Assembly (NCBI GenBank): GCA_021823685.1
Contig: JAKANL010000001.1
Location: 38,831 to 102,830, forward strand
Direction: 5' to 3'
From: a bacterium
Lineage (GTDB): Bacteria > Babelota > Babeliae > Babelales > UBA12409
DNA: 64,000 bases
Part shown: positions 25,247 through 46,289 of the stretch, one piece after another
Position numbering within the stretch: position 1 is the first letter of the stretch
Layout: each line of letters opens with the position of its first letter
Made by a program: the position numbers and the translations under genes
The notes under the pieces: generated by a model
Databases searched by the model: none
The model's input: the letters and a program-made list of their open reading frames with translations, nothing else
What the model was told of the DNA's origin: nothing

Positions 25247-25295
25247 GATTGATGTGCGGTACGTGAAAAGTAATGGGATGTACGGAGGTTTTTGC

Positions 25296-27286: not shown

Positions 27287-27296
27287 GAAAGGCGAG

Positions 27297-30068
27297 ATGA
27301 TCGTGGTACGAAAACTACATAAGCTCTTGTTGGTCGCATGGATAAGCGGTTATTGGTTGAGCTGCTTTTCGGTTGAAACAAACACGTTTAAGCCATTTTG
27401 CCAGAGTTTTATCGACGGCTTATCGTTTAATCCTGAAAGCCGTTTTGTTCACGAATATCATCCATATCTATTGGCCAAAACACAGGATTCGCTTCATCAA
27501 TTAGAATCGTATATCACGCAACAAGGGTTTGTATCGGCGCATCGCTTGGTCATTTTAGGCTATGAACAATACGCGGTTCCGCAGTATTTTGATTGTTTAT
27601 CACAACAGCACATTGACGATGAAGCGGCTATTAAGACGAAGGGAAGCTGGGAATTTACCCCCGGCAATGTGTGCGGTTTTTTGACCGGCTATTTGTTTAA
27701 AGATGCCAACATGACATCCCAGCACGTTGTTGAACATATCGTGCCGGAATGCGTTGAACTGTTTGGTGAAAATACTGAGGTTTTGAAAAAACATGCGTTT
27801 GGCGATTGGAACGATACGCTTGCTGGATATCAGGAAGTCGTGCAAAAAAATTTACAGGATGGTGATGTTGCGTCGGCCATGGCGCGTGTGGTCGATTTTT
27901 GGCAATACATTTACGAAAGCCGTGAGCAATGTGGCCAGCAATATCGTGCGACGCAGGATTTATTATTTTCTTTTTATTACGTCAAATACCTGCTTAATTC
28001 TGCTATTCCATTCAAAAAAATATTTGTAGGACCAGATGTTACCTATCCTATCGAAGTAACCGAACGCCAACCGGCCGAGGTAACGCGCAATGCGCAAACG
28101 TTTGTGCAACGATTTATTCAGGAATTAAAGCCGGTTAATGGGCAAAAAACGGCGTATATCTTTTGCAGTTTTGTCGATGGTGTTGGGAAAAGTACGTTAC
28201 TGGGCAATATCTGCAATTGGCAAAAATATGGCACTGACTTTTCTGCATATACGCATGTAAGTAACGCTTCATCGCAAAGCGCGACGCTCTATCACTTTAA
28301 CGATCAAGTTTGCATTGTCGATTTGCCCGCACAAATTAGCCATTATTGCGCAAAACCCGATGGTTGCGTGTATATCGATTTGGGATTTAGTACGCTGACG
28401 TCTTCTGAAAAAAAAGCTGTTCAGACGTATGTGAGCAAAAATTTTGAGGCGATACGTTCTGCTCAGCCGCCAGCTTCGAATACGATTGGCGCAACTCCTG
28501 AAGAACAAGTGTGGCACAATATAATGCTTATCGGATCGTCATCGTGGCGGCCATGTGCGTTTGACGGCAAACATTACGCGATCAGCCTGCGTGATCCGCG
28601 GCACATTCGCGTGCTCGTTCCCTTTGATCAGGTGCATTCACAGGGGCTTAAAATTAAAGAACCCGAACTCATGATTTTTGATAGGGGGCTGGCGATTCCC
28701 ATGAATTACCAGGTCTTTTTGGCCGATCTTACCAAACAAATGAAAAATGCCGGGGTGGAACAGGTGGTCTTCGTTGATTTTGCGAGCTTGTATCCACGTA
28801 CTTCTCGCGAGACCGTGCGTATTAACTATATGGTGCAATTGCTCAAGCAATTTTATGGTGACGAATTTGATTTAATGAGCAGCATGTATCGTCCGTTTGG
28901 CCATGCACATGAAGTGTATCCGCTCTTTTTCCAGCAACGTGATGCCTTTGAGCGTGGTGTCTTTTTGGAGGCGTTGTTACGTTATGTGATTCACGATGTT
29001 ATTATGCAGGCTTCGCGTGATGGCATTGCGTTTATGACGAGCTACGAAGTTCAGCAACAATTACGCGCACGTATTAAACAGCTCTATGGTAATTGCCAGG
29101 CAACCGTTGATGACGTGCTCCGTGCCGTCCGCCGGCGCGTCGATCAAGAGCTTCCACAGGTAGCGATATATCAATACAGTAAATTTTACGAGGCCGTATC
29201 GCGCTTTTCCGTCAAACGGATGGCACAGTTGAGCGATTTAGTGCAGCAATTTGTGGCGCGATATCATCCCGATGATTCGGTTCGAATTGCGTGGAATCGA
29301 TATGCCGCCGATATTGAGTCGTTTTCTTCTGACCACAAAAAAGCGATTTTGACTAACGGTGTGCAGCTGGAGATGGTGCGGCCGCTTCAGGCGCATGAAT
29401 TGGATCAACCGCTGCTGGAAGTGTTTGCGCACACGTTGCGCAAATCGTGGTATGACCAAATTGTCGGTGTCGTTGTGAGCGAACTTGCGCAGGCATATGC
29501 GCAGGCATGGCTCATCAAAAAAGATGCGCAGGGCGATTGGTATTTGTTGCATCAGGTTCTTTTTAAAACCGATGAGCGCCCGCTCACATTGCTTGATGAA
29601 GTATCAACCTTCGATATGGGAAACCATACGTGGTACGACGACGATGGCGCGTATATGCCGACGTGCATTGATCGTATACGCAAAGAATTTTTTTCCAAGC
29701 AGATTGGCAATGCCGTCTATGACCTTTTTATTCCAACGTCAGCGGTGTGCGCTGAGCTTGATAACCAAAATGCATGGGCGGCTGCGGGTAATCGTACGCG
29801 TAAGATGATTTTGCCTAAAATTGAGCACGTTTCGCGCGAAACGCTGCAATTACTCGTGCGTATGCTCGCCACCATGCATACTATTCTGAAAAATCCGCGC
29901 GATGAAATCATGGTGCGCTGTGGTAACCAGGAAGATTTTATTGCGTGTGTACGGTTACTTGAAGATTTGATCGTGCCAAAATATTTTGACCTGCCGCTTA
30001 AAGAACGGCTCTTTGACGATTATACTACTATTGTGCCGTTAATTGGTGAGTCTGTATCCAAAGCATAG
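27297..30068 (+). CDS. large exported/anchored P-loop NTPase-like protein (orphan operon gene 4)
   Basis: GGAAAGG then ATG 27297, 11 nt after the gene 3 stop. N-terminal anchor LLLVAWISGYWLSCF. Walker A-like AYIFCSFVDGVGKSTLLGN about 330 aa in, and a possible Walker B QVVFVDF. The remaining roughly 550 aa are unassignable. Confidence 0.65.
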   Translation: MIVVRKLHKLLLVAWISGYWLSCFSVETNTFKPFCQSFIDGLSFNPESRFVHEYHPYLLAKTQDSLHQLESYITQQGFVSAHRLVILGYEQYAVPQYFDCLSQQHIDDEAAIKTKGSWEFTPGNVCGFLTGYLFKDANMTSQHVVEHIVPECVELFGENTEVLKKHAFGDWNDTLAGYQEVVQKNLQDGDVASAMARVVDFWQYIYESREQCGQQYRATQDLLFSFYYVKYLLNSAIPFKKIFVGPDVTYPIEVTERQPAEVTRNAQTFVQRFIQELKPVNGQKTAYIFCSFVDGVGKSTLLGNICNWQKYGTDFSAYTHVSNASSQSATLYHFNDQVCIVDLPAQISHYCAKPDGCVYIDLGFSTLTSSEKKAVQTYVSKNFEAIRSAQPPASNTIGATPEEQVWHNIMLIGSSSWRPCAFDGKHYAISLRDPRHIRVLVPFDQVHSQGLKIKEPELMIFDRGLAIPMNYQVFLADLTKQMKNAGVEQVVFVDFASLYPRTSRETVRINYMVQLLKQFYGDEFDLMSSMYRPFGHAHEVYPLFFQQRDAFERGVFLEALLRYVIHDVIMQASRDGIAFMTSYEVQQQLRARIKQLYGNCQATVDDVLRAVRRRVDQELPQVAIYQYSKFYEAVSRFSVKRMAQLSDLVQQFVARYHPDDSVRIAWNRYAADIESFSSDHKKAILTNGVQLEMVRPLQAHELDQPLLEVFAHTLRKSWYDQIVGVVVSELAQAYAQAWLIKKDAQGDWYLLHQVLFKTDERPLTLLDEVSTFDMGNHTWYDDDGAYMPTCIDRIRKEFFSKQIGNAVYDLFIPTSAVCAELDNQNAWAAAGNRTRKMILPKIEHVSRETLQLLVRMLATMHTILKNPRDEIMVRCGNQEDFIACVRLLEDLIVPKYFDLPLKERLFDDYTTIVPLIGESVSKA

Positions 30069-32671: not shown

Positions 32672-32779
32672 GGGGCCTTCGGTATAACAATACGCTTTGA
32701 TTGGTGTCTTCCTATAGACAGATTGAGCGAATTTGATACAATTATTCATATACACATACATGTTAAAAAGGTATTTGGG

Positions 32780-33217
32780 ATGGTGGAAAAAAAATCAACA
32801 GCGCAATCAAAAAAATCGGTCAAATCGGCGCAACCGAAGGTGAAAAAGGGAGCTGCAAAAAAAGTTGTCGCAACGGACGAGTCTGTATTTCCCGTAGCTT
32901 CGTTTCCTGAGTATGCCATTTTTCAAACGGGTGGTAAGCAATATCAAGCCATTCCAGGCAAGACGGTAGCCATCGAAAAACTCGATGCGCAAGCCGGTGA
33001 TAACGTTGAATTTAAAGAAGTTCTTTTCCGCAAAACAGGTGACGGTAAATTTGAAATCGGCCAACCGTTTGTTGAAAAAGCAATTATCAAAGCATCCATT
33101 GTTAAACAAACGCTCGAGCCAAAAGTAGTCGTCTTTCACTTCCGCCGCCGCAAAAAATCCCGCGTTAAACGCGGCCACCGCCAACCAGCAACGGTGGTGC
33201 GCATCGAAGCAATCTAA
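32780..33217 (+). CDS. rplU: 50S ribosomal protein L21 with Lys-rich N-terminal extension
   Basis: YAIFQTGGKQYQAIPGKTVAIEKL...RRKKSRVKRGHRQP is the L21 core. It is preceded by about 45 aa, MVEKKSTAQSKKSVKSAQPKVKKGAAKK. Confidence 0.88.
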   Translation: MVEKKSTAQSKKSVKSAQPKVKKGAAKKVVATDESVFPVASFPEYAIFQTGGKQYQAIPGKTVAIEKLDAQAGDNVEFKEVLFRKTGDGKFEIGQPFVEKAIIKASIVKQTLEPKVVVFHFRRRKKSRVKRGHRQPATVVRIEAI

Positions 33218-33242
33218 GTTTTTTTACTAAGACACAATGTTA

Positions 33243-33271
33243 AAAGCCGCTCAAATGAGCGGCTTTTTTTT
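33243..33271 (+). terminator. rho-independent terminator after rplU
   Basis: AAAGCCGCTC-AAAT-GAGCGGCTTT stem-loop followed by a T run. Confidence 0.75.
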
Positions 33272-33374: not shown

Positions 33375-34568
33375 ATGAGCGCTTGCAGATCTTTGACCGT
33401 CACCGGTCTTTTCTTATTATTTTTTGGAATCATGCGATCTGATATCGTAAAAAATGATAATAATATTTCTATTTTAGGTCTCGGCCGCCTTGGCTTTTGT
33501 ACCGCTTTGTGTTTGGAAAAGGTTGGTTATAACGTGTTGGGTGTCGACATTTTGCCTTCCTATATCGATCAAATTAATAATAAAACCTTAAGATCTCCTG
33601 AGCCATTCGTTGAAGAATATCTGAAAGCAAGTAAAAATTTACGTGCGACGACGTCGTTGGATGAGGTGCTTAATTTTTCCGATACGTATTTAATTATTAT
33701 TGCAACGCCTTCAACTCCTTCCAAAGAAGCATATGACCATTCGGCGCTGAGCCGGTTACTGGCTGAAATTAATAAGCGTCGGGTAAAAAATAAGCACGTT
33801 GTTATCTGTTGCACCATTTTCCCGGGATATATCAAAAACGTAGCGCGCTTGCTGCTCAAAGATTGTGAGAATACAAGCGTAAGCTATAACCCAGAGTTTA
33901 TTGCGCAGGGATGTATTGTGAGCTGGTTTGAAAAGCCTGATATGGTTTTGATCGGTGAGGGATCAAAGGCGGCCGGCGATCGTTTGGAAGCGATATATCG
34001 CCGTATGTGCACCAATGAGCCGCGCATTTGCCGTATGAGTCCTGAAAGTGCTGAGATTACGAAGCTCTCAGTTAATTGCTTTATAACGACCAAGATTGCT
34101 TACGCTAACATGGTTTCTGATATTGCGGATGCGACGCCAGGAGCTAATAAATACGATATCCTGCGCGCTGTTGGCGAAGACAAGCGCGTTGGTACCAAGT
34201 GCCTGAATCCAGGATATGGCTTTGGCGGTCCATGTTTCCCGCGGGATAATCGTGCACTTGGTTCGTATGCCCAAATGATTGGCATTGAGCCAATTATTCC
34301 ACAAGCCACGGATAAATCTAATGCGCAGCATGCACAGCTGATGGCACAGCGATTGTTGGAGCAAAATTTAGCTGAATATGCTTTTACTGACGTTAACTAT
34401 AAAGATAAGTGTCCGGTGGTCATTTTGGAAGAATCGCAAAAGTTGGCCGTTGCCGAAATTTTGGCCAAGGCCGGCAAAAACGTGATTATTCGTGATCGCA
34501 TAGCCGTTCTTGAGGAGGTAAAGCAAAAGTTTGGCAATTTATTTGTCTACGAAACGCTTGCTGCATAG
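33375..34568 (+). CDS. nucleotide-sugar dehydrogenase (UDP-glucose/GDP-mannose dehydrogenase family)
   Basis: GAAAGGAG RBS. Hydrophobic leader LTVTGLFLLFFGIM, then Rossmann ISILGLGRLG and catalytic GFGGPCFPRDNRAL. Confidence 0.75.
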   Translation: MSACRSLTVTGLFLLFFGIMRSDIVKNDNNISILGLGRLGFCTALCLEKVGYNVLGVDILPSYIDQINNKTLRSPEPFVEEYLKASKNLRATTSLDEVLNFSDTYLIIIATPSTPSKEAYDHSALSRLLAEINKRRVKNKHVVICCTIFPGYIKNVARLLLKDCENTSVSYNPEFIAQGCIVSWFEKPDMVLIGEGSKAAGDRLEAIYRRMCTNEPRICRMSPESAEITKLSVNCFITTKIAYANMVSDIADATPGANKYDILRAVGEDKRVGTKCLNPGYGFGGPCFPRDNRALGSYAQMIGIEPIIPQATDKSNAQHAQLMAQRLLEQNLAEYAFTDVNYKDKCPVVILEESQKLAVAEILAKAGKNVIIRDRIAVLEEVKQKFGNLFVYETLAA

Positions 34569-34595
34569 ATTTTTAATTTTTAAAGAGGGTTTGTT

Positions 34596-35675
34596 ATGAA
34601 AAGGATGCTAAAAAGCCTGTTATTGCTGAGTACGTTGTGTGCGGTGGTAACCGGGTTACAGTGCGCAAAAGTTAAGCCTGAATCTTTTGCCAAAAGAGCA
34701 CTCGTATGCGGTGCGGGAGGTTTTATCGGTTCGCATTTGGTGGAACGTTTAAAAAGTGAGGGGTATTGGGTGCGCGGTGTTGATCTAAAATTACCCGAGT
34801 TTTCCCAAACAGCTGCCCACGATTTCATTTTAGGTGACTTACGCAATCCAAAGACCTGCGAAAAAGCCACTTTGATTGGCGATGTTCCCGTTGACGAAAT
34901 TTATCAATTGGCTGCTGATATGGGTGGCATTGGTTTTATTTATGAGCACGACGCGCAAATTTTGCACAACTCGGTTTTGATTAACGTTAATATGGCTGAA
35001 GCAAGCCGTAAATTAGGTGTAAAACGTTTGTTTTATTCGTCATCGGCTTGTGTTTATCCCGAACGTAATCAATTAACGCCAGACCATCCGGTGTGCGCAG
35101 AGTCTTCAGCGTATCCAGCAGCTCCTGATAGCGAATATGGCTGGGAAAAATTATTTAGTGAACGGCTATATAAAGCCTTTGAAAAAGATCATAAAGTTAC
35201 TATTGTGCGTATCGCTCGTTTCCATAATATTTTTGGACCCGAAGGTACGTGGGAAGGCGGTCGCGAAAAGGCGCCAGCAGCATTGTGCAGAAAAGTTGCT
35301 CTAGCCCAAGACGGTGGCGTGATTGAAATCTGGGGCGACGGCTTACAAACACGTTCATTTTTATACGTCGATGAATGTGTTACGGGTATTTTAAAACTTA
35401 TGCGTTCAGAGGTCGACGTTCCACTCAATATCGGTTCAGAAGAAATGGTTACAATTAATCAACTAGCCCAAATGATTATCGATATTTCGGGCAAGAAGTT
35501 AACGATTAAGCATATACCAGGAACGCAGGGTGTTCGTGGGAGAAATTCCGATAACCACCTGGTTCGCGAAAAATTGCAATGGGAACCATCATCAAAATTA
35601 TGTGATGGGCTCGTTGTAACGTATAAATGGATTGAACAACAGGTAGCGCAAAAATACGGTGCTGCCAAAAAATAA
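34596..35675 (+). CDS. GDP-mannose 3,5-epimerase-like NAD-dependent epimerase
   Basis: GAGGFIGSHL, LAADMGGIGFI, SSSACVYPE, FHNIFGPEGTWEGGREKAPAALCRK, WGDGLQTRSF and GVRGRNSDN are collinear with plant-type GME as I recall it. An N-terminal hydrophobic leader, MKRMLKSLLLLSTLCAVVTG, precedes the fold. Confidence 0.7.
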   Translation: MKRMLKSLLLLSTLCAVVTGLQCAKVKPESFAKRALVCGAGGFIGSHLVERLKSEGYWVRGVDLKLPEFSQTAAHDFILGDLRNPKTCEKATLIGDVPVDEIYQLAADMGGIGFIYEHDAQILHNSVLINVNMAEASRKLGVKRLFYSSSACVYPERNQLTPDHPVCAESSAYPAAPDSEYGWEKLFSERLYKAFEKDHKVTIVRIARFHNIFGPEGTWEGGREKAPAALCRKVALAQDGGVIEIWGDGLQTRSFLYVDECVTGILKLMRSEVDVPLNIGSEEMVTINQLAQMIIDISGKKLTIKHIPGTQGVRGRNSDNHLVREKLQWEPSSKLCDGLVVTYKWIEQQVAQKYGAAKK

Positions 35676-35682
35676 GTAGTAG

Positions 35683-35710
35683 AAGGGGCCGCGTTAATAA
35701 GCGGCCCCTC
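35683..35710 (+). terminator. GC-rich hairpin after the epimerase gene (weak terminator or attenuator)
   Basis: AGGGGCCGC / GCGGCCCCT 9-bp stem with an 8-nt loop and no immediate T run. Confidence 0.25.
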
Positions 35711-35742
35711 AGTAAGCAATCTTTTTACACAGGGAGTTTGTA

Positions 35743-36681
35743 GTGATTTGTAAGTGGGTAACTTCGATTCTTTGCTGTTTGGGTGCAGCAATTTTAGCTA
35801 ATGCATCTGATAACCAGAAGTTTTTTGAACCATTATCAGACGAAAACGTATTGTGTGATTTTTCGAATGTGCCCATCAAAACAGTTCAGAATTTTTGGGA
35901 TAGCCGGCCTTGCAATATTAGGCATTCGGCGAAGGAGTTTGGCACACGTGAATATTTTGATGAAGTTGAATCACGAAAATATTTTGTAGAGCCGCATATA
36001 CGTGAATTTGCTGAGTTCGAAAAATGGAACGGGAAGAAAGTGCTCGAAATTGGATGTGGCATTGGTACAGAGGCCGTAAATTTTGCACGTGCTGGGGCCA
36101 AGCTAACCGCACTCGAACTATCCCCGAAAAGTTTAGAAATAGCGCGTAAACGTTTTGATGTTTATGGGTTACAGGCACAGTTTGTTCTCGGTAATGCCGA
36201 AGAGCTCGATAAACTTTTACCTGCGGGCGAAAAATTTGACTTAATATGGTCCTTTGGCGTGATTCATCATAGCCCGTACCCAAAAAGAATTATTGAGCAT
36301 TGCAGAAAATTTTTGAAACCTGATGGCGAATTACGCATTATGGTTTACTCAAAAGTGAGCTATAAATTATTTTTTTTGATGCGCGAGACGGGGATGTGGG
36401 ATTTTAGTAAAATTGATTCGCTTATCGCAAAATATTCTGAAGCGCAGACCGGCTGTCCGATTACATATACCTACACAAAAAAGACCGTTGGAGATCTGTT
36501 AAAAAACTTTAGGTTGCTGGAGGTTAAAAAAGCGCACATTTTCCCTTACAAAATAAATGAATATGTAAAAAAAGTGTATGAAAAAGAAGATTGTTGGTTG
36601 CATGTTACCGCAGCGGCTTTTAGTCAGTTGGAAGATGAATTGGGCTGGCACCTACTTGTGAGAGCGAAAATAAGATGTTAG
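35743..36681 (+). CDS. class I SAM-dependent methyltransferase
   Basis: Motif [13 protein letters not shown] and acidic LELS. GTG start after GGGAG. Hydrophobic leader [16 protein letters not shown]. Confidence 0.7.
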
Positions 36682-36713
36682 TAAAAGACACGAATGATTT
36701 TGGAGTAAATATA

Positions 36714-37451
36714 ATGTTAAAAAATGGACTATTGGCAGCGAGTTTTCTGTTTTTTGGAACAAACCTTTCCGGTTTTAAAAAAGTTGACTCGGTTCCGTGG
36801 GAACACCCAGTTTCTCCCTATAAAAGTCAATTTGGGCAAGATAAGTATGCACATGAACAATTTTTTAAAGGGCAGAAAGGTTTTTTCGTTGAAATCGGGG
36901 CTGCCGACGGTGAAAAATGTAGCAACACATATTTTTTTGAAAAAATATTGGGATGGAATGGTCTTTGTATTGAACCATTGCCTCATTTGTATGCGCGTTT
37001 ATGTGCAAATAGAAGGTGTAAATGCATAAGTTGCGCTCTAGGAAAAGCTGAAGGCACGAGATGCTTTTTGTGGGCGAAAAACGAGTTAGAAGGCTTTAGC
37101 GGTTTTGTTGACACCTACCACCCGGAGCATTTTATTTTGTTGCAACAAGTAGCAAAAAAGTTAAAAGTTTCTGCAGATTTTACCCTTCTTGATGTTCCTG
37201 TGCGAAAACCTATGTCTGTTTTTGAAGAATGCCATATTTCAAAAATAGATGTGCTTAGCCTGGATACCGAAGGCTCTGAGTTAGAAATTTTGAGTGGTAT
37301 TGATTTTTCGAAGATTACGATAAATGTGATTGTCGTTGAAAATATGCGCAATATTGAATTGATCAGAAACTTTTTGAAGAATAAAGGATTTTTATTCGTT
37401 GAGCGCTTGGTAATTGATGATATTTTTGTGCGACATGGGTTTGCTTATTGA
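36714..37451 (+). CDS. FkbM-family methyltransferase
   Basis: FVEIGAADGEKCSNTYFFE...GLCIEP...DVLSLDTEGSELEIL matches the FkbM pattern. Leader is MLKNGLLAASFLFFGTNL. The ORF opens at 36675, overlapping the upstream stop. Confidence 0.75.
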   Translation: MLKNGLLAASFLFFGTNLSGFKKVDSVPWEHPVSPYKSQFGQDKYAHEQFFKGQKGFFVEIGAADGEKCSNTYFFEKILGWNGLCIEPLPHLYARLCANRRCKCISCALGKAEGTRCFLWAKNELEGFSGFVDTYHPEHFILLQQVAKKLKVSADFTLLDVPVRKPMSVFEECHISKIDVLSLDTEGSELEILSGIDFSKITINVIVVENMRNIELIRNFLKNKGFLFVERLVIDDIFVRHGFAY

Positions 37452-37487
37452 GTTAAGTTGCCGTTGGTTTTTGTGGGAAGGGTTTTT

Positions 37488-38417
37488 ATGGTTGGAATAA
37501 TTTGCAGGGCTTGTGCCATATTGTGCGTAATCTCGCCGATTGTGCCGAATATTAAGCAGGTACCTTTTGAGGAATCGATGCGCTTTACTGCACGTTGGCA
37601 TGGCGAATTTAAGGCGAGTGTTGGTTCGTTTGCAAATGTTGCTCGTTTTATTTATCCAGAAGCTGGCAGTGCGTCTGGATATTATGACTTTCTTAAAAAA
37701 CAATACGAAGATGGGATGAAAGTTGCGCAAAGCAGTGAAAATAAAGTGCGTATCCCCAAAATTTTGCATCAAATATGGATGGGATCGGGAAGTAAAATTC
37801 CAGCGAATTTACTGGAATTGCGTAAAACTTTTCTCGATAATCATCCTGGCTGGCAGCATAAATTGTGGACTGATGATGATTTGAAGAAATTTGATTTTGT
37901 AAATAAGGAACTATTTTTTGCTGCAAAGACGTATGGTGAGCGTTCAGATATCTGGAGATATGAGATTTTATATAAATTTGGCGGCGTATATGCGGATATG
38001 GATTTTATTTGTTATAAGCCACTTGACGATTTTAACAAAGCGTTTGATTTTTATGTGGGCATTCATCCCGTAGATGGTGCTTTTATTGGCCTGAATAACG
38101 CTTTTATTGCCTGTGTGCCAGGTCATCCAATTTTAAAATATGCTATCGATTATTTCCCAACAATGAAGGCACAAGAAAAAATAATCCGTAGCGAAATTTC
38201 GCCTCATATTTATGCTTCAGGGCCAGTTCTCATTACGCGTGCTTTTTACATGGCTTATGGTACCGGTAATTATCGTAATATAGCCTTGCCAACTACTTAC
38301 TTTTATCCTATGGGATTGAGTGAGCGGCGCCAAAGTCCGAGCATTTTTGAGCGGCCAGAGAGTTATGTCATGCATTTGTGGCATGGAACATGTCATAGGG
38401 CGTCCAAAAAAGATTAG
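37488..38417 (+). CDS. GT32-type glycosyltransferase (Och1/Gly_transf_sug-like, DXD)
   Basis: ILHQIWMG, RSDIWRYEILYKFGGVYADMDFIC (DxD) and LNNAFIAC. N-terminal anchor is MVGIICRACAILCVISPIV. Confidence 0.7.
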   Translation: MVGIICRACAILCVISPIVPNIKQVPFEESMRFTARWHGEFKASVGSFANVARFIYPEAGSASGYYDFLKKQYEDGMKVAQSSENKVRIPKILHQIWMGSGSKIPANLLELRKTFLDNHPGWQHKLWTDDDLKKFDFVNKELFFAAKTYGERSDIWRYEILYKFGGVYADMDFICYKPLDDFNKAFDFYVGIHPVDGAFIGLNNAFIACVPGHPILKYAIDYFPTMKAQEKIIRSEISPHIYASGPVLITRAFYMAYGTGNYRNIALPTTYFYPMGLSERRQSPSIFERPESYVMHLWHGTCHRASKKD

Positions 38418-38466
38418 TTGGTTTTGTCCTTCGATGGGGTCCGTGTTTTATTTTACGAGGTTGTTT

Positions 38467-39663
38467 ATGGTTAAAGGATGTAGGTGGTTAATGGTTAGGT
38501 TGACGATTGTTTTATCTTTTTTTTGCCTAGGTTCGGAGCCGATAATCTATCTGGTTCCATTTGGGCATTGTGGTGCATTAGATTCCGACATATTTTTCAG
38601 CGCATTTGCTGAAAAATCTCAAGTTGTCAACTGGGATGGTTTTATGGTACAGCACGTTATGTTGAAAAATACGTTGACGAAATTGGGTTATAAATTCTTT
38701 ACCACGTTTGATCCAGATAATGTTGAACATAGAGATGTCGCGCAGGCTTTTGTTTTTTACAATATTTCCGTCGATAAATTTGGGAAGCCTTTTTTGTTAA
38801 ATCGAGCTTTGCGGGTACCCAAAAGCAAGCTGAGCGTTATTTTGTGGGAACCCCCAATTAAACCATTTGTAAATAATTTTAATAGCTCTTTACAACAGCG
38901 CTTCGGGAAGGTTTTAACATGGGATGACGAATTGTTGGATTGTAAGCATTTTTTTAAATTTTATAATGACACGCGGTGGATGATTTGCGATATGAAAAGG
39001 GATGATTCGGTGCCCTTTGAAAAAAAACGGTTGGTTGCAATGGTGGCTTCGATACCCTATAGCGTTCACCCGGCCGAATTGACCTCTTTGCGTAGGCGAT
39101 TTATTGAATATGTGGATGGGGTTGCTGATCCCAATGAATTTGGGTTGTATGGCCGTGGATTAGAGGGGTGCCGCTATAGGTGTTATCGCGGGGCGATTAC
39201 CAAAAAATGCGAAGGGTACAGGAATTTTAAGTTCGCGGTGTGCTATGAAAATTGTCGTTGGTCGGGTTATATTAGCGAGAAGATTTTTGAGGGCATGATG
39301 GCCGGGTGTGTGCCAATCTATTATGGGGCTCCAAACATTACCAAATATATTCCAAAAGGATGCTTTATCGATTACGCTGATTTTGGATCAGAGGAGAAGC
39401 TTTACGCATATATTAAAAATATGGGAAAGGATGAGTATATGCGTTATATTAAAAATATCGATCTGTTCTTGAAATCGACTAAGGCCCATCTTTTTTCGCT
39501 TGAAAATTGGGTTGATACCTTTATAACGACCATTTTAGGGCCTTATGATCTAGGCATTTGGGATTCTGATGTTCGTGAAGAAATTAAGAAACTTCGATTG
39601 TTAAGGGAAGAATTGGGGGGTTACAGGCTCCATAGAAACGCTTTTTGCATGGGGGATTGGTAA
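38467..39663 (+). CDS. GT10-family alpha-1,3-fucosyltransferase-like glycosyltransferase
   Basis: FKFAVCYENCRWSGYISEKIFEGMMAGCVPIYYG matches the GT10 motif (compare CFEN..GY.TEKI....IPIY.G of H. pylori FucT as I recall it). GAGG lies 6 nt before ATG 38467. Anchor is LMVRLTIVLSFFCLG. Confidence 0.7.
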   Translation: MVKGCRWLMVRLTIVLSFFCLGSEPIIYLVPFGHCGALDSDIFFSAFAEKSQVVNWDGFMVQHVMLKNTLTKLGYKFFTTFDPDNVEHRDVAQAFVFYNISVDKFGKPFLLNRALRVPKSKLSVILWEPPIKPFVNNFNSSLQQRFGKVLTWDDELLDCKHFFKFYNDTRWMICDMKRDDSVPFEKKRLVAMVASIPYSVHPAELTSLRRRFIEYVDGVADPNEFGLYGRGLEGCRYRCYRGAITKKCEGYRNFKFAVCYENCRWSGYISEKIFEGMMAGCVPIYYGAPNITKYIPKGCFIDYADFGSEEKLYAYIKNMGKDEYMRYIKNIDLFLKSTKAHLFSLENWVDTFITTILGPYDLGIWDSDVREEIKKLRLLREELGGYRLHRNAFCMGDW

Positions 39664-39706
39664 AACCAATCCCCCATGTATAGAAAGGTAATTGGGGTTT
39701 AAAAAG

Positions 39707-40681
39707 ATGAAAGGCGTGGTCGTGAGAGTTTGGTGTTGTCTTTTTGTGTTTTTAGCCACAGGTGTTATGCATTGTGCCAGGGCTGGAAAGATGCATAGAA
39801 ATTCATTTATAACATCTGATTCACTTGTTTTTTGTACAGCGGCTGATTCACGATATTATGGTCCGCTGCTTTGTTTAATTGGATCGATACATCGATTGCA
39901 TTATGACGATTTGGGTGAAGTTTCGGTGTATAATTTGGGGCTTTCAAAAGAAGAGGTTTCAACATTAAAAAAAATAAAAAAGGTACAGGTCTATGAAATT
40001 GAGCGCGTACATCCCGATTTGTTAAGGAGCTTTTATTCCGGACGGTCTAAGCATGTTATAGGGTGGTTTGCCTGGAAGCCTGTGGTTATCAAGCAAGAGC
40101 TAGAACGATATCCATATTTTTTGTATGTGGATGCAGGAACCCTCATTCTAAATTCAGTAAAAAATCTGTTCGGTTATATTAAGGAGAAGGGCTCTTTTTT
40201 TATTGATACCGATGTAACTTTTGATGCATTTACCACCAAGCCGGTAAAACAATTTTTTGGTTTGAGTGATAATTGGTTGCAAACGCATCGTATGATACTT
40301 GCAGGGTTTCAGGGAATTTCTAGAGAGTTGGCCGATCAATATGTTATTCCTATGTATCACATGGCGAGAGATCATTTCGATTTATTTATTGATGATGGTA
40401 GTGCTGGTAGCGGCTTGGGATGGGGGAGACATGATTTGGTTTTATTTAGTTATTTTGTTAACACACTAAATTATAAAATATATCAAGGAAAACAGGCAGA
40501 TCTCGGAAAATATGGAATAATTTCTTTCAACAAAGGTGTTCCAACATTGGTTGAGGCTGCTCCGGGTTCATCATCTTACCCTCAATGTACGATTTATAAT
40601 TCTCGATGCAATGTGTGGTCAACCTTTAAAAAATATATAAGATATGGTGCGGCTGATCAAAGCGCAATTACTGTTATCTGA
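39707..40681 (+). CDS. putative GT-A-like glycosyltransferase (DUF1647-like), paralog of 42455..43645
   Basis: Anchor VVVRVWCCLFVFLATGV. Shared blocks are AADSRYYGPLL..SI, VSVYNLGLS, WFAWKPVVIKQEL..YPYFLYVDAG and LAGFQGIS. The family assignment comes from memory of the WKP and DAG/S blocks only. Confidence 0.45.
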   Translation: MKGVVVRVWCCLFVFLATGVMHCARAGKMHRNSFITSDSLVFCTAADSRYYGPLLCLIGSIHRLHYDDLGEVSVYNLGLSKEEVSTLKKIKKVQVYEIERVHPDLLRSFYSGRSKHVIGWFAWKPVVIKQELERYPYFLYVDAGTLILNSVKNLFGYIKEKGSFFIDTDVTFDAFTTKPVKQFFGLSDNWLQTHRMILAGFQGISRELADQYVIPMYHMARDHFDLFIDDGSAGSGLGWGRHDLVLFSYFVNTLNYKIYQGKQADLGKYGIISFNKGVPTLVEAAPGSSSYPQCTIYNSRCNVWSTFKKYIRYGAADQSAITVI

Positions 40682-40708
40682 AAAAATCAAATATTTAAGG
40701 AGTTTCGA

Positions 40709-41407
40709 ATGATGAGGGAAAAATGGTTCAGTCCTTTAGTTTTTGTTTTTTTTATATTTTTCAAATGTAGCGGCGTTGGTAGTCCCGAAGGCGGATATTC
40801 AATTTTTCAGATTATTTATCAAAATAATTGGTGGGGAGGGAAAGAATCTGTTTCTGGGGTCGGGTCAGATTCAGAACAGACCAAAATCATAAAAATCGAA
40901 GTTCCGAAATTACTTAAGTTATTTAATGTTGAGACGATGCTTGATTTGCCCTGCGGAGATTTTAATTGGATGAAATGCATCGATCTCTCAATTTTAAAGT
41001 CATATGTAGGGGGAGATATTATTTCAGATCTCATCGAAAAAAATAATAAACTTTACAAAAAAAATAATGTGTCTTTTGTCGTTATGAATATTATAACGAG
41101 CAGTATTCCACGGGTTGATCTTATCATGTGTCGCGATTTGTTTGTTCATATGCCCTTTAAAGACATAAAACTTGCGTTAAAAAATTTGAAATCAAGCGGT
41201 TCGACGTTTTTGCTTATAACGACAAATCCAAGCCGGACGACCAATATAGATACTGGCGTTGGCGGTTGGAGACGACTGAATTTCGAGGTAGCGCCGTTCT
41301 GCTTTCCAAAGCCGCTATACATAATAAATGAGGGATGCACAGAACGGGAAGGTCAGGATAGCGATAAAAGCCTGGCTCTTTGGAAGTTGAATGATTTGCC
41401 CCTTTGA
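40709..41407 (+). CDS. class I SAM-dependent methyltransferase
   Basis: AAGGAG RBS. Leader FSPLVFVFFIFFKCSG. MLDLPCGDFNWM motif I variant and DLIMCRDLFVHM. Confidence 0.6.
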   Translation: MMREKWFSPLVFVFFIFFKCSGVGSPEGGYSIFQIIYQNNWWGGKESVSGVGSDSEQTKIIKIEVPKLLKLFNVETMLDLPCGDFNWMKCIDLSILKSYVGGDIISDLIEKNNKLYKKNNVSFVVMNIITSSIPRVDLIMCRDLFVHMPFKDIKLALKNLKSSGSTFLLITTNPSRTTNIDTGVGGWRRLNFEVAPFCFPKPLYIINEGCTEREGQDSDKSLALWKLNDLPL

Positions 41408-41480
41408 CTGAATCTCAAAACACAATCGTGGCAATCTAGCGCTTGAAAGATAGTATGTAAGCCGAATTTTGGTTGTAAAA

Positions 41481-42125
41481 CTATTTTTTTGTTGCTATGA
41501 CGGTCTGTCCCCAAAATTCTCGCTTGTCATTGTAGTGAGAGATGATTTTAAAGTAGCAGTTTATATATCGTTTGAATTCACAAAAACTCCATTCTCGCGT
41601 GTGTGCTGGGTTTACCGGTGGGCCAGTTTGGCTTTGGTTAGTTTTCTGGACCGTTAGCAATTTCGGTCTGTCGGGGGTAGAAATAATTAAATATTTAAAG
41701 TTTAGCCGATTTATAAAATTGAGTAATTCATCAGGGTCTACTAAGTGTTCTATAACGTCGGAGCATATTATTAAATCTGTGTTAAATTCTGGTGGCGTTT
41801 CGCTTAATTTGCTAGTTTGCCACCGCCGATTTGGATATTTGTTTTTTAAAAAAGTGAGCGTTGGCTCTATTTCATAACCAACTGTTTCGTACGAGCTAAA
41901 GTATTTGAGTAATTTATAACCAGATCCGCAACCGATATCAGTAATATGTTTGAGATCATGCAGTTTAGCAAACATATATGCGGCAAAATATACCTCATCC
42001 TGACATTCATCTGTACATGGTCTATCATCGAAATGATGGTATTGATCTCTAGAGATATAATCCTTGCTGATAAAATAATTTTCTTTTTTGAATGATAGAT
42101 TTTGAGCGAAGATGTGGCCGGTCAA
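41481..42125 (-). CDS. class I SAM-dependent methyltransferase
   Basis: ITDIGCGSGYKLL (motif I), GYEIEP and DLIICSDVIEHLVDP. TTG start at 42125. The in-frame upstream codons (..EKVFIAVF) are hydrophobic but have no canonical start. Confidence 0.65.
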   Translation of the reverse strand: MTGHIFAQNLSFKKENYFISKDYISRDQYHHFDDRPCTDECQDEVYFAAYMFAKLHDLKHITDIGCGSGYKLLKYFSSYETVGYEIEPTLTFLKNKYPNRRWQTSKLSETPPEFNTDLIICSDVIEHLVDPDELLNFINRLNFKYLIISTPDRPKLLTVQKTNQSQTGPPVNPAHTREWSFCEFKRYINCYFKIISHYNDKREFWGQTVIATKK

Positions 42126-42454
42126 AAAAACGGCAATGAAGACTTTTTCAGAAGTGATCTGTCTTTTGATAAAGCACCCCCTATCTATAACATTCTATGA
42201 AAACATATCATAAGTGAGATGAGAGAAACAATATGTTTTATGAAAAAATTGTTTAATTGTTGTTTGGTGCGGCAGCTTAACAAGTTATAGCGGGAGATTG
42301 AGGCTTTGCTTTTAGATAATTGTTTATGGCAAGGTTTCAAATAATTAGTTGCCGTTCCAGCAATGAAAAAGCGCGACGATTAAAGCTTATAACCTAATCC
42401 CGGTTGCAGACGCTAGGTCCGGCTCAAAATTGCTGTTGTGCTATATGAGAGGCG

Positions 42455-43645
42455 TTATTTAAAACTTCGTTTTGTTGCACGTATCTGTGGATGGATTTTT
42501 GATTGCCCGTGGCTTCGGCCAGCAGCCCTGTTTTTTATTTGGGCAAAGTGGGCGGTTTTTTTCACGCGGAGCTTCTTTATGACTTGTGCAACAGGCGAAT
42601 TTTTTGGTTCAGGTTTTGCTGGCGTTGTAACCGGTTCTTTTTTCTTTTGCACAGTTTTTCCGCTTGTTTTGTCTTGCTCGTCCGGGGTGCCTTTTTTGTC
42701 GTCTTTTTCTTCAATGGTTGTTTTTTCTGGCTGTGGGGGTGGTGGCGTCGGTATAAAGCCGTGGGTTGCTAGTTCTTTTTTCGCTATTTCGCATAGTGTT
42801 GCAAGATCTTTTTTGCCGTGTGTGCGTTTGGTGAGCCAGGTGAAGTAGTGGACTGAGTGTACTTTGAATCCAAGTTTTCTGACCAGGATGCTGAAGAGCG
42901 GTTGGTCGTTACGGCTGTAGTCAAATCCGCCCGGGCAGCCCGGATCACTTTGGAAATATTCTATATTTTTTGCCAGCTGGTAGATCGGTAGTACATACGA
43001 TTTATAAATGTGGCCACTTACTCCTTGATAGCCGGCCGATATGCCCGTTTCTTGCCCGTATTTTTCAAATTCATCTTTGAAGAGCTCCATAATTTTGGGC
43101 GGTGACATGATCATTATCGGGTGGCTTTCAGAACAGGCGGCGAAAAAGTAGCCGTCGCGCTCAATGCAGGCAAACGGGTAGCTGAGCGGCGCTTGTAACT
43201 CGAGTCCGGCGTCGATATACATACAATAGGGGTATTTATCGAGCGCCATTTTGAGCGCAACCGGTTTCCAACTGTAGTAGCCGCGCGCCGTTCGGCCATT
43301 TTGGCGGACGGGAAATGGCGTGAGCATAGAGGGGTTTACTTGCTCAAGGGTATCGACGTGAACATTGGGGAGCGTTGTGATTTCCGTTCGCTGTTCCGGC
43401 GTAAGCCCGAGGTCATAAACGGTGATTTCCCACGGCGTGTTAGCATGGTGTTTATAAATCGAATTAATCATGACAAGCAGGCAAGGATAAAACTCACTGT
43501 CTGCTGACGTGGCAAAATAGAGTTTTTCAAATGTTGCTTGCGTATTGATTATCCATAGCATGATTACGACATAGATGAGGCGGTGCCGCATAGGCGTGGA
43601 AACTTTCTTGGCGTGCATATTTTTACTCCACATGGGCTTCATCAC
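42455..43645 (-). CDS. putative GT-A-like glycosyltransferase (DUF1647-like) with Lys/Pro-rich basic tail
   Basis: Paralog of 39707..40681 (SADSEFYPCLL..SI, ITVYDLGLT, YYSWKPVALKMAL..YPYCMYIDAG, SAGYQGVS). Anchor is LIYVVIMLWII. The C-terminal roughly 110 aa is K/P/T-rich. Confidence 0.45.
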   Translation of the reverse strand: MMKPMWSKNMHAKKVSTPMRHRLIYVVIMLWIINTQATFEKLYFATSADSEFYPCLLVMINSIYKHHANTPWEITVYDLGLTPEQRTEITTLPNVHVDTLEQVNPSMLTPFPVRQNGRTARGYYSWKPVALKMALDKYPYCMYIDAGLELQAPLSYPFACIERDGYFFAACSESHPIMIMSPPKIMELFKDEFEKYGQETGISAGYQGVSGHIYKSYVLPIYQLAKNIEYFQSDPGCPGGFDYSRNDQPLFSILVRKLGFKVHSVHYFTWLTKRTHGKKDLATLCEIAKKELATHGFIPTPPPPQPEKTTIEEKDDKKGTPDEQDKTSGKTVQKKKEPVTTPAKPEPKNSPVAQVIKKLRVKKTAHFAQIKNRAAGRSHGQSKIHPQIRATKRSFK

Positions 43646-43803: not shown

Positions 43804-44130
43804 TTAGTTGACGGTCATTCGCCAAAAGTGCGGACGTTCGCCATTAGGTGATTCGAAGCATACACCCTCGGTTTTCCCTTTTTCGAGAGCAGTTACATTT
43901 TGACCATCTACCGTTAGCGTGTTGTTGCGTGTTGCATATAAGACATCTTCGCCTGGAACACGACAGTGGCTAATTTTTGCCGACAACGACGCCAATGAGC
44001 AGGTGCTTCCCTTGTTCATTTTGAATTGGTAATATTGCCCGTCCTCAAAAGGCGTATTCTCGCTGCAAAATGGTACCGCATTTACCGCCGCGAAACTTCC
44101 GGCAAGTAAAACTAACACGAGCTTCTTCAT
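43804..44130 (-). CDS. small secreted Cys-containing protein (paralog A)
   Basis: AAGGAGGAATC-ATG. Signal peptide MKKLVLVLLAGSFAAVNA. Four Cys positions are conserved with 44962..45369, and both share YQFKM and the C-terminal W-RMTV(N/S). Confidence 0.75.
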   Translation of the reverse strand: MKKLVLVLLAGSFAAVNAVPFCSENTPFEDGQYYQFKMNKGSTCSLASLSAKISHCRVPGEDVLYATRNNTLTVDGQNVTALEKGKTEGVCFESPNGERPHFWRMTVN

Positions 44131-44487: not shown

Positions 44488-44802
44488 TTATTCTTTTTCG
44501 GTTCCTGAAGTTTTCATGCCAACGAGTTCGATGCGCCCTGGTTTGAGCGAAATAAGATACACGTTGAGTGAATCGGCATTTTCATCGGCGGGGCCGATCA
44601 TGGTGACCGATGCGTTGGGGGAGATTTTGATCTCTTCTCCATGATTAATTACTTTGCTAAAGGTATGGTTAATGCCGTCTTTCCAGGATGACCACTCGAT
44701 ATGTATTGGTAGTTCTGTTTTATTACTAATTATGGTAGCAAAAATAGACGGGGAGCTACCAAGCGTTATCAGTGCGGTGAGTGTTAATAAGAGTTTTTTC
44801 AT
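44488..44802 (-). CDS. small secreted protein
   Basis: Signal peptide MKKLLLTLTALITLGSSPSIFA, 104 aa. It shows no similarity to paralogs A or B. Confidence 0.6.
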   Translation of the reverse strand: MKKLLLTLTALITLGSSPSIFATIISNKTELPIHIEWSSWKDGINHTFSKVINHGEEIKISPNASVTMIGPADENADSLNVYLISLKPGRIELVGMKTSGTEKE

Positions 44803-44961: not shown

Positions 44962-45369
44962 TTAGGAAACTGTCATTCTCCAGACAAATTGTTGGGGTCG
45001 ACAGCGGTCCGTTTGTTTATCGAAACATACGCCCACGGTTGTTCCTTTCGATCTAGCTGTTACGTTCTCATTAACACCCGCTTGGATTATTTTATTCTCT
45101 GTACTATACCGCGAGAAACCAGTTTGGACTAGACAGCGCTCAATTTTGTCAGACAGCGCCCCCAATGAACACTCTTGTCCCTCCTTCATTTTGAACTGGT
45201 AGATGGTTTCGTAACCGGGGCCGCTATTATCTTCGTAAGGTGTGTTTTTCTCGCAGTTTTTTATTAGTAGCGCACGTACCGCCGCGGAACTTCCGTCAGG
45301 CTTTGGTACTACTACCGCATTTACCGCCGCGAAACTTCCGGCAAGTAAAACTAACAAGACCTTCTTCAT
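44962..45369 (-). CDS. small secreted Cys-containing protein (paralog B)
   Basis: Same RBS and signal peptide (MKKVLLVLLAGSFAAVNA) as paralog A. It has an internal duplication of the signal-peptide-coding segment (GSFAAVNA / GSSAAVRA) and ends WRMTVS. Confidence 0.75.
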   Translation of the reverse strand: MKKVLLVLLAGSFAAVNAVVVPKPDGSSAAVRALLIKNCEKNTPYEDNSGPGYETIYQFKMKEGQECSLGALSDKIERCLVQTGFSRYSTENKIIQAGVNENVTARSKGTTVGVCFDKQTDRCRPQQFVWRMTVS

Positions 45370-45719: not shown

Positions 45720-46289
45720 TTAGTGCAGGATATAGCAACTGGCGATGAAAATCGCGGTGAGGGCGGCGGCGATGTAGTTAAAATACCCGCGCAGGAGCTG
45801 TTGGACCTGAGCGCCAAAGCGGTTGGCAAAAAGCGCTATGCCAAAAAAACGAATCGAGCGGCCCATAATTGCGCTCAGAACAAAGGGAAGAAATGCGATG
45901 TGGCAGAACCCCGCGCTTAGGGTGAGTAATTTGTAAGGGAACGGGGTTAAACTTGCGATAAAGATTGCGCAGCCGCCGTGTTCTTGATATAAGCACATGA
46001 GCCGACTGAGTGTGCCATGAGGTGAAAGATGGTTGATAAACGATGTGCCGATATAACAAAGGAGTAGTGAACCGAGCCAATAGGCCAAAATACCGCCCAG
46101 CACTGAAGCGATTGTGGCGCCAAGGGCATAGCGGAGCGATTTTTTTGGTTGTTCCAGACAAAAAATGGTGAGAAGCGTACCTGCCGGCATAAAAATAACG
46201 GCCTCAACGAAAACGGCGACCAAAAAGAGCGGGAACGCCCACCGGTGATTGGTGTGTCCAGTTAACGCTCGATACATGCGCTGCATCAT
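45720..46289 (-). CDS. DedA/YqaA-family membrane protein
   Basis: 189 aa with 4-5 hydrophobic helices. The layout FPLFLVAVFVEAVIFMPAG...GRSIRFFGIALF is typical of the small YqaA/DedA family. Confidence 0.65.
   Translation of the reverse strand: MMQRMYRALTGHTNHRWAFPLFLVAVFVEAVIFMPAGTLLTIFCLEQPKKSLRYALGATIASVLGGILAYWLGSLLLCYIGTSFINHLSPHGTLSRLMCLYQEHGGCAIFIASLTPFPYKLLTLSAGFCHIAFLPFVLSAIMGRSIRFFGIALFANRFGAQVQQLLRGYFNYIAAALTAIFIASCYILH

Follow-up and report, generated by a model that had tools for sequence, protein, structure and literature searches.

Bacteria assemble their surface glycans either from nucleotide sugars within the cytoplasm or from lipid-linked donors beyond it, and, to our knowledge, the enzymes that modify nucleotide sugars are taken to be cytoplasmic. 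Here we describe a cluster of ten genes for sugar-nucleotide enzymes, glycosyltransferases (GT) and methyltransferases (MT), most of which begin with a predicted Sec-type signal peptide. The cluster occupies positions 33375-43645 of a 64,000-nt window of contig JAKANL010000001.1 (assembly GCA_021823685.1, Babelota). All coordinates below are positions in this window, which is the 64 kb of the genome covered here; L-numbers denote related loci and P-numbers homologous proteins. The window, in which there is no rRNA gene, most likely comes from a member of Dependentiae (TM6/Babeliales), obligate intracellular parasites of protists.

The high signal-peptide content of this phylum is already known. 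The cultured member C. destructans (Chromulinavorax) has two membranes, replicates in the host cytoplasm, carries signal peptides on 44% of its coding sequences, and no genes for lipopolysaccharide (LPS) were found in it (PMC6561590). In Babela massiliensis, ankyrin proteins with signal peptides are thought to be secreted to the amoeba cytoplasm via type II secretion, its only secretion system (PMC4378268). A literature search found no earlier descriptions of glycosyltransferases or nucleotide-sugar enzymes with signal peptides in Dependentiae.

Known systems and how the locus compares

By gene content, the cluster is similar to Wzx-dependent polysaccharide loci such as L016 and L100. In these, the same three families, a GDP-mannose 3,5-epimerase (hereafter GME), a methyltransferase (MT1) and a nucleotide-sugar dehydrogenase (DH), are adjacent on one strand and, respectively, 63-69%, 50-63% and 35-39% identical to the window proteins, while FkbM or other methyltransferases and GT2 or GT4 accompany this cassette. 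However, the enzymes of those loci are leaderless and directly followed by a Polysacc_synt flippase, whereas the window enzymes have export-type N-termini and no flippase was found near them.

The inclusion-lumen glycogen of Chlamydia trachomatis provides a parallel in location. This intracellular bacterium secretes GlgA and runs a Leloir glycosyltransferase outside its own cytoplasm on a host nucleotide sugar, UDP-glucose (PMC4829429), as we propose here for the window enzymes. Unlike them, the Chlamydia enzymes use type 3 secretion, lack Sec signals and produce a single storage polymer with no tailoring or methylation. The window cluster would use a Sec route, with or without type II secretion, and includes a sugar-nucleotide short-chain dehydrogenase/reductase (SDR) and a dehydrogenase.

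Similar to type II glycosyltransferases of the Golgi, the window proteins have one N-terminal hydrophobic segment followed by a GT-A or GT10 domain, belong to the GT10, GT32 and GT8-like families and are predicted to have a non-cytoplasmic catalytic domain. By contrast, Golgi enzymes have uncleaved anchors of ∼20 aa, while the window proteins have cores of 9-15 aa, mostly with signal-peptidase-type sites; moreover, the Rossmann-fold enzymes GME and UDP-glucose dehydrogenase are cytosolic in eukaryotes, and the nearest relatives of the window proteins are bacterial. Legionella SetA/Lgt and clostridial TcdA/B are also GT-A enzymes with a DXD motif acting on host cytosolic UDP-sugars, and SetA is the best solved relative of the window GT32. 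Each of these, however, modifies host proteins as a lone enzyme and reaches them by type IV secretion or toxin uptake, rather than as part of a multi-enzyme pathway with Sec signals. Giant viruses (chloroviruses, mimiviruses) have their own glycosyltransferases, sugar-nucleotide enzymes and sugar methyltransferases, and use host precursors without the usual lipid-carrier route; still, the viral enzymes are not known to be Sec-exported, and the likeness drawn here is one of description.

Gene content of the cluster

The region contains ten open reading frames (ORFs), eight on the forward strand with intergenic gaps of 27-67 nt and two (MT4 and GTb) on the reverse strand. The original prediction had counted eleven genes, while its own itemised list sums to ten. 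Families were assigned by profile searches against Pfam and NCBIfam, searches of solved structures and Foldseek on a structural model; S-adenosylmethionine is abbreviated as SAM:

33375-34568, forward: DH, nucleotide-sugar dehydrogenase (TIGR03026, 230 bits, cutoff 189.8; PF03721 and PF00984)
34596-35675, forward: GME, predicted GDP-mannose 3,5-epimerase (full-length match to Arabidopsis GME, 2c59, E 1.6e-101, 52% identity)
35743-36681, forward: MT1, class I SAM methyltransferase (several SAM-methyltransferase Pfam models at ∼70 bits)
36714-37451, forward: FkbM-family methyltransferase (PF05050, 65 bits; TIGR01444)
37488-38417, forward: GT32-type DXD glycosyltransferase (PF04488, 52.6 bits, cutoff 23; DMD at residues 170-172)
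38467-39663, forward: GT10 fucosyltransferase-like enzyme (PF00852, 50.8 bits, cutoff 23.9)
39707-40681, forward: GTa, divergent GT-A (GT8-like) protein (AlphaFold2 model with a mean predicted local distance difference test score, pLDDT, of 86; Foldseek E ∼3e-7)
40709-41407, forward: MT3, probable SAM methyltransferase (sub-threshold PF13649, 21.6 bits against 27, E 3.5e-4)
41481-42170, reverse: MT4, SAM methyltransferase (PF13489, 42 bits; canonical TTG start at 42125)
42455-43618, reverse: GTb, paralogue of GTa (alignment with the GTa family; GGAG before ATG 43618)

The cluster thus comprises a nucleotide-sugar dehydrogenase, GME, three clear and one probable methyltransferase, GT32, GT10, and two GT8-like GT-A paralogues, all of them singletons in clustering at 90% identity. 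The profiles and structures bear out the families named in the original prediction, namely DH, GME, GT10, GT32 and two paralogous GT-like proteins, and the GME and GT10 motifs quoted there are present. Of its four SAM methyltransferases, three are clear, including the FkbM-type one, while MT3 is only probable because its sole profile match is below the threshold. Neither MT3 nor MT4 has a significant match among solved structures, and the single-sequence structure model of MT3 was unusable (pLDDT 33).

The epimerase at 34596-35675 is a true GME as judged from its residues, with the corresponding activity predicted. It keeps all eight signature residues (S143, C145, Y174, K178, N203, K217, R243, R306) that separate GME from GalE and GDP-fucose synthase (PMC8787198). 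These include the S143/Y174/K178 triad, which together with GxxGxxG defines extended SDRs, the Cys145/Lys217 acid-base pair, and Arg306, Arg243 and Asn203; the aligned motifs are GAGGFIGSH, SSSACVYPE, GGREKAPAA, GVRGRNSDN, LQTRSF and FHNIFGP. GDP-fucose synthase was rejected as an assignment, as its model scores 104 bits against a cutoff of 500 and the synthase has His and Lys instead of Cys145/Lys217. So was the UDP-hexose 4-epimerase GalE, the identity that the original prediction had named as fatal to its case.

In DH, the NAD and central domains and the catalytic Cys are present, and the catalytic motif GFGGPCFPRD is invariant in the alignment of the family. The C-terminal nucleotide-sugar-binding domain PF03720 had no match in DH, which is ∼70 aa shorter than its cassette orthologues. 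The closest solved structures, UDP-glucose dehydrogenase (4e-40) and GDP-mannose dehydrogenase (3e-37), score roughly alike, so they do not assign the substrate; its conserved placement beside GME is a hint of a GDP-sugar.

Among the glycosyltransferases, GT10 matches solved fucosyltransferases at ∼1e-10 and has the motif YEN...GYISEK...VPIYYG. In the alignment of its homologues, E, R and YEN..GY.TEK are invariant (E128, R209, E261, N262, E271 and K272). GT32 has weak matches in solved structures, the best being Legionella SetA and a Photorhabdus toxin glycosyltransferase; Och1 is also among them. The model of GTa has a GT-A fold, with GT15 Ktr4, GT8 LgtC and glycogenin, and GT24 UGGT as the nearest Foldseek matches (template modelling score 0.4-0.5). 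GTa and GTb are 27% identical and belong to a small family with 20 other members. The GT8 profile PF01501 matches 8 of 21 GTa-family members weakly and neither GTa nor GTb, and the conserved motif of the family is D-A-G, not DXD; therefore, we call both proteins GT8-like rather than GT8. GTb also has a Pro/Lys-rich, low-complexity basic C-terminal tail of ∼110 aa (42455-42790), absent in all homologues. GT10, GT32 and GTa have their closest relatives in bacteria (Babeliales, Chlamydiota, Verrucomicrobiota, Paenibacillus).

None of the ten proteins has an internal transmembrane segment or is polytopic, and no flippase, polymerase, ABC exporter or priming transferase domains were found in the cluster with Pfam and NCBIfam, in agreement with the original prediction. 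The same families were absent from the ∼50 window ORFs, including most of the larger ones, scanned against these databases. In these respects the locus differs from conventional Wzx/Wzy or ABC loci, which encode priming, flippase or exporter, and polymerase functions.

Signal-like N-termini

With canonical start codons, nine of the ten cluster proteins begin with a positively charged stretch and a hydrophobic core, and MT4 would be the tenth if it starts at ATC. The original prediction of ten such N-termini among eleven proteins holds for the presence of the segments, though not for the count of eleven. The cores are 9-15 residues long, and the flanks preceding them all have a net positive charge, in each case at least as positive as the flank that follows. 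Most of the N-termini have small-x-small sites, such as ANA/SD, ARA/GK and TQA/TF (the slash marks the predicted cut). By definition, a Sec signal peptide cut by signal peptidase I has a positive n-region, a hydrophobic core of 7-15 residues, and small side chains at positions -3 and -1; we screened for it by simple, untrained rules of charge and hydrophobicity. Nine to ten of the ten cluster proteins fit this screen, DH and GT32 being without a clear cleavage site. The cluster N-termini resemble those of the periplasmic-type amidase and NamZ encoded in the same window, unlike the 22-aa anchor of HtrA.

The original prediction had compared these segments to the signal anchors of type II Golgi enzymes. 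Such an anchor is an uncleaved helix of ∼18-25 residues, and both the cluster cores and those of the DH family (median 12) are shorter. The core length, the positive n-flank and the small-x-small sites together predict that these are Sec-type signal peptides rather than Golgi-like anchors, and that they would be cleaved. We rejected the idea that GME and MT3 are lipoproteins, as their N-termini have no canonical lipobox, and Tat export, as there is no twin-arginine motif.

The reading frames support the long N-termini in most genes. A ribosome-binding site (RBS) precedes the long starts, not the internal ones, of DH, GME, MT1, MT3, GT10, FkbM and GTb. In DH, the ATG follows AAGGAG at a distance of 6 nt, a stop codon closes the frame just upstream, and the 15-residue hydrophobic core (MSACRSLTVTGLFLLFFGIM) precedes the Rossmann motif; the internal ATG 33432 would yield a typical short N-terminus. 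GME has an extra 30-residue signal-peptide-like N-terminus (MKRMLKSLLLLSTLCAVVTGLQCAKV...) behind an AGAGGG RBS, with no alternative RBS-preceded start before GAGGFIGSH. The predicted signal peptide of MT1 ends at the ANA/SD site (RBS GGGAG), that of FkbM is MLKNGLLAASFLFFGTNLSG/FKK (GGAG before 36714; alternative ATG 36675), that of GT10 is MVKGCRWLMVRLTIVLSFFCLG/SEP (GAGG RBS at 38467), and that of MT3 is MMREKWFSPLVFVFFIFFKCSG/VG (RBS AAGGAG). GTa has a signal peptide ending in HCARA/GK, and GTb has MHAKKVSTPMRHRLIYVVIMLWIINTQA/TF.

The claim that strong RBSs back the long starts thus stands for DH, GME, MT1, MT3 and GT10, whereas GT32 and GTa have plausible shorter starts. GAGG also precedes ATG 37578 in GT32, whose N-terminus is hydrophobic from the long start, and the NCBI annotation of the same contig has shorter versions of GT32 (279 aa) and GTa (296 aa). 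Despite this ambiguity, the homologues of both retain the N-terminal segment. MT4 had been named as the exception, and it indeed has no signal peptide from TTG 42125. Read from ATC 42170, which is in frame and 6 nt behind AGGGGG, the N-terminus would be MKRQITSEKVFIAVFLTGHIFA/QN, and we infer that translation may start there.

Similar N-termini occur in ∼26 of the 45 other ORFs of the window (∼58%). Against this background the count of nine out of ten is by itself unexceptional for the genome, and we dropped the argument from statistical enrichment in the cluster. The unusual feature is the enzyme classes that bear the signal-like N-termini, not their number. One more enzyme of this kind is encoded 15 kb upstream of the cluster:

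18484-19908, reverse: canonical three-domain UDP-glucose 6-dehydrogenase (TuaD-like, 440 bits; PF03721, PF00984 and PF03720)

It has a signal-like N-terminus (MCRFPQVSYMLLCTLLSTTVF...), and AAGGAG is located 7 nt before its ATG at 19908.

Signal peptides in related loci

Among the 120 best DH homologues (57-79% identity), 89 pass the strict signal-peptide screen and ∼6 more clearly carry a signal peptide (∼95 of 120). The 99 homologues with an N-terminal extension have a median core of 12 aa; the n-region is positive in 82 of them, and in 89 a small-x-small site is found 3-6 aa ahead of the first Rossmann strand (…LQA/QNNITVIG…). The homologues without a signal peptide (∼24) begin at the fold and come mostly from short mRNA-like contigs or eukaryotic transcriptome sets. 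Named close homologues (59-66% identity) are only Babeliales/Dependentiae metagenome-assembled genomes (MAGs), as is one GT10 homologue. Several eukaryotic-looking homologues, P0109, P0116, P0120, P0143 and P0137 (EukProt entries, mRNA-like contigs), are ∼60% identical and leaderless; they hint at gene exchange between protists and Dependentiae.

Signal peptides are found in all 20 GTa-family homologues, and hydrophobic N-termini in ∼15 of 21 GT10 homologues. In the loci of GTa homologues, the neighbouring GT2, GT25, GT32, GT4, STELLO, DUF1796, FkbM and SDR epimerase genes also encode signal peptides. Likewise, signal peptides are present in the FkbM proteins encoded beside GTa- or DH-family genes in L082, L084, L085, L088 and L089, while a second FkbM copy in L085 (10799-11458) has none. 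Other Dependentiae loci have signal peptides on two SDRs, Methyltransf_24, FkbM and a GDP-mannose 4,6-dehydratase-like enzyme. In the Chlamydiota-like locus L084, which has the chlamydial TopA-SWIB fusion (4733-7297), the region 7827-17200 encodes GT2, GT32, GT25, DUF1796, FkbM and one GTa-family protein, all with signal peptides, while GT9, GT4 and ManC have none. By these gene calls, the phenomenon reaches beyond Dependentiae.

For GME the picture is different. Scans of genomes and metagenomes yielded 548 and 591 bacterial GME matches, the best having 62-70% identity and all being leaderless. None of the 126 other bacterial GME loci encodes a signal peptide on GME, and the maximum N-terminal extension open to the enzyme has a median of 9 aa. 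A separate search of 50%-identity representatives, in which close relatives are collapsed, was uninformative on signal-peptide GMEs. Since GME is leaderless in these 126 loci, the predicted signal peptide of the window GME is a derived, lineage-specific addition.

Origin of the gene set

In at least ten other bacterial loci, GME has an MT1 homologue (50-63% identity) up to 2 kb away on its own strand, adjacent in several, and a short-subfamily dehydrogenase (33-39% identity) lies within ∼3 kb of GME in at least 15 bacterial loci; these counts are lower bounds, as many contigs are short. The cassette loci L016, L096, L100, L102, L070, L093, L053 and L056 come from Planctomycetia, Actinomycetes, Neomarinimicrobiota and others, and Wzx or ABC exporters adjoin them. 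In L016, a Planctomycetia MAG, the leaderless cassette is followed by a Wzx-type Polysacc_synt flippase, a GT4-methyltransferase fusion and GT2; in L100, it is followed by a Polysacc_synt flippase and methyltransferases including FkbM, all leaderless. The cassette orthologues in L016, L056, L070 and L100 have no signal peptide, and MT1 homologues from the cassettes begin near query residues 29-45. Leaderless cytoplasmic enzymes, as in conventional O-antigen or capsule loci, set these loci apart from the window cluster, which differs further in that neither its genes nor the window ORFs scanned include a flippase, polymerase, ABC exporter or priming transferase.

The recurrence of GME, DH and MT1 beside Wzx flippases indicates, from gene order and similarity, that the cluster is built around a common type of bacterial polysaccharide cassette rather than one from eukaryotes or viruses. 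The original prediction had described the enzymes as eukaryote- or virus-type and had named a wide occurrence of the gene set beside standard Wzx/Wzy machinery as refuting it; for the nucleotide-sugar module, this is what we see. The window GME is 62-70% identical to bacterial homologues and 52% to the plant enzyme, and the relatives of GT10, GT32 and GTa point the same way. We accordingly rejected an island of eukaryotic or viral origin, given the bacterial GME relatives and cassette loci. The absence of a flippase, also noted in the prediction, is true only of the locus itself: in close relatives, a Wzx-like gene adjoins the DH homologue. The probable product of the cassette is an activated sugar that has yet to be characterised, perhaps a methylated L-hexuronic acid.

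In L089 (Babeliales), an MT1 homologue (11272-12069) is located beside a signal-peptide DH, and the sequence is split in two fragments, possibly a pseudogene. The GC content falls to 36-40% across MT1-MT4 (35700-42100), with that of third codon positions (GC3) down to 0.31, compared to 45.6% for the window, while DH and GME (43%) and GTb (47%) are nearer the background. This drop is compatible with, and suggests, a separate or lateral acquisition of the central part.

A possible host-fed route of glycan assembly

The best explanation, which we hold with moderate confidence, is that an ordinary methylated-polysaccharide gene set has been retargeted by Sec to the periplasm, the cell surface or the host cytosol, where it would work on host substrates. 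Action outside the cytoplasm, as proposed in the original prediction, remains the best reading of the cluster. Sec would export the enzymes across the inner membrane, and they would act in the periplasm, at the cell surface or, via type II secretion or vesicle release, in the host cytosol. The inputs would be host GDP-mannose, UDP-sugars, nicotinamide adenine dinucleotide (NAD+) and SAM. DH would oxidise a nucleotide hexose to a uronic acid; GT10, GT32 and the two GT8-like enzymes would transfer sugars to a putative acceptor, and the methyltransferases would O-methylate the product. GT10 could use GDP-L-galactose (GDP-L-Gal) as a donor, because fucosyltransferases accept GDP-L-Gal (PMC8787198), which makes the predicted L-galactose- or fucose-type methylated glycan a reasonable candidate. 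With assembly outside the cytoplasm, a lipid-carrier priming enzyme and a flippase would not be needed in the cluster. The window is rich in signal-peptide ORFs without Pfam matches and includes a signal-peptide ankyrin protein, which fits the descriptions of the phylum.

Several points weigh against export. Sec delivers unfolded protein, so that the enzymes would have to pick up NAD+ once out of the cytoplasm, and DH needs a reduced catalytic cysteine, which is a difficulty for an exported enzyme with 13 Cys. As described above, DH and GT32 have no clear cleavage site, the starts of GT32 and GTa are ambiguous, and the ∼58% of other window ORFs with such N-termini make enrichment in the cluster statistically weak. 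In L091 (383-5070), a Wzx-like gene directly precedes the closest DH homologue (79% identity), and a GDP-mannose dehydratase with a signal peptide adjoins a leaderless GDP-fucose-synthase-like partner; in L088, a Wzx-like gene is 5 kb from the DH homologue. Finally, ManC, a priming transferase or Wzx may be encoded elsewhere in the genome, beyond the 64 kb.

Alternative explanations

Some of these points would be accommodated if the segments were uncleaved tethers keeping the enzymes as an assembly complex on the cytoplasmic side of the inner membrane; the glycan would be built there in the conventional way on a lipid carrier, to be flipped by a Wzx from another part of the genome. The cytoplasm is where the metabolites nucleotide sugars, NAD+ and SAM are found, the GME-DH-MT1 cassette normally resides in Wzx-dependent loci, and the Wzx-like genes of L091 and L088, the leaderless Fcl-like partner of the signal-peptide GMD-like enzyme in L091 and the lack of obvious cleavage sites in DH and GT32 would fit as well. 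We nevertheless consider this explanation unlikely, as cores of 9-15 aa are too short to span the membrane, the positive charge on the N-side predicts a translocated C-terminal domain, a small-x-small site precedes the mature fold in 89 of the 99 extended DH homologues, and the same type of N-terminus occurs on window proteins that are obviously exported (the amidase, NamZ and the ankyrin protein). If the proteins do leave the cell, they could instead be effectors, secreted by Sec and type II secretion or in vesicles, that modify the host by converting or depleting nucleotide sugars or by glycosylating or methylating host proteins or glycans. The Babela ankyrins with signal peptides are predicted to reach the host cytoplasm by type II secretion (PMC4378268), SetA and the Photorhabdus toxin glycosyltransferase are the best, albeit weak, solved matches of GT32, and the basic low-complexity tail of GTb would also suit an effector. 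But a ten-enzyme pathway with sugar-nucleotide tailoring and four methyltransferases resembles the synthesis of a defined glycan rather than a toxin, its core cassette comes from polysaccharide loci, and a multi-step pathway would lose efficiency if its parts were diluted in the host cytosol; we regard the effector role as rather improbable.

Two further explanations concern the segments themselves. They could be artefacts of over-extended starts on ordinary cytosolic enzymes, as the short NCBI starts of GT32 and GTa and the internal ATG of DH might be taken to indicate. This is very improbable in view of the strong Shine-Dalgarno sequences before the long starts, and none before the internal ones, in DH, GME, MT1, MT3 and GT10, the lack of a usable GME start past the hydrophobic segment, and the open, ATG-initiated extensions of 20-35 aa kept in ∼95 DH homologues and in 20 of 20 GTa homologues. 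We give hardly any credence to the framing of the original prediction, in which a eukaryote or giant virus was the donor of the genes and Golgi-type anchors were inherited with them as the N-terminal helices. The nearest relatives of GME, MT1, GT10 and GTa are bacterial, the eukaryotic DH homologues have no N-terminal segment, and GME and UDP-glucose dehydrogenase, being cytosolic in eukaryotes, had no anchor to pass on; in addition, the cores are shorter than signal anchors. These observations outweigh the low GC content of MT1-MT4, the ∼60% identity of the eukaryotic-looking DH homologues and the frequency of GT10, GT32 and GT8-like folds in the Golgi.

Surroundings of the cluster

The upstream boundary of the cluster is marked by a hairpin, and a membrane protein is encoded 2 kb from the cluster:

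33242-33267, forward: strong intrinsic-terminator-like hairpin after rplU (11-bp stem, 6 GC pairs, T-run)
45720-46289, reverse: DedA/VTT-family membrane protein

Members of the DedA/VTT family have been linked to the recycling of undecaprenyl phosphate, a carrier lipid. The cluster is directly followed downstream by three small signal-peptide proteins without Pfam matches (43804-44130, 44488-44802 and 44962-45369, reverse strand), the first and the third being paralogues (MKK.LLVLLAGSFAAVNAV ... RMTV). On the upstream side, the rplU (L21) ORF (32723-33217, forward) has a Lys-rich N-terminal extension of ∼60 residues, while the public gene call is 145 aa long. A 956-aa ORF just upstream of mutS (27198-30068, forward) has a P-loop-like motif and no Pfam or NCBIfam match, and is preceded by three signal-peptide ORFs of no known family (23939-27286, forward).

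Implications

In the window, predicted export signals span the whole pathway, including GME and two sugar dehydrogenases, and the signal of DH is conserved across ∼100 relatives in the phylum. We tentatively extend this to the proposal, on balance doubtful, that Dependentiae and some Chlamydiota-like bacteria run a complete Leloir pathway outside their cytoplasm on host GDP-mannose, UDP-sugars, NAD+ and SAM. Such a pathway would comprise interconversion of nucleotide sugars (by the dehydrogenase, GME, GDP-mannose dehydratase and other SDRs), glycosyl transfer and O-methylation, with neither lipid-carrier priming nor flippases.

The GME-dehydrogenase-methyltransferase cassette of free-living bacteria is in itself a lead to an uncharacterised activated sugar. 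If the enzymes work outside, energy parasites would also tap the host pools of activated sugars, NAD+ and SAM, for their own coat or for modification of the host. This would be a new mode of glycan assembly and would account for the presence of glycan genes in a phylum from which LPS genes are reportedly missing, with testable targets in the cultured Babela, Chromulinavorax and Vermiphilus. If true, the exported pathway would give bacteria an equivalent of the Golgi lumen, with the host supplying the power.

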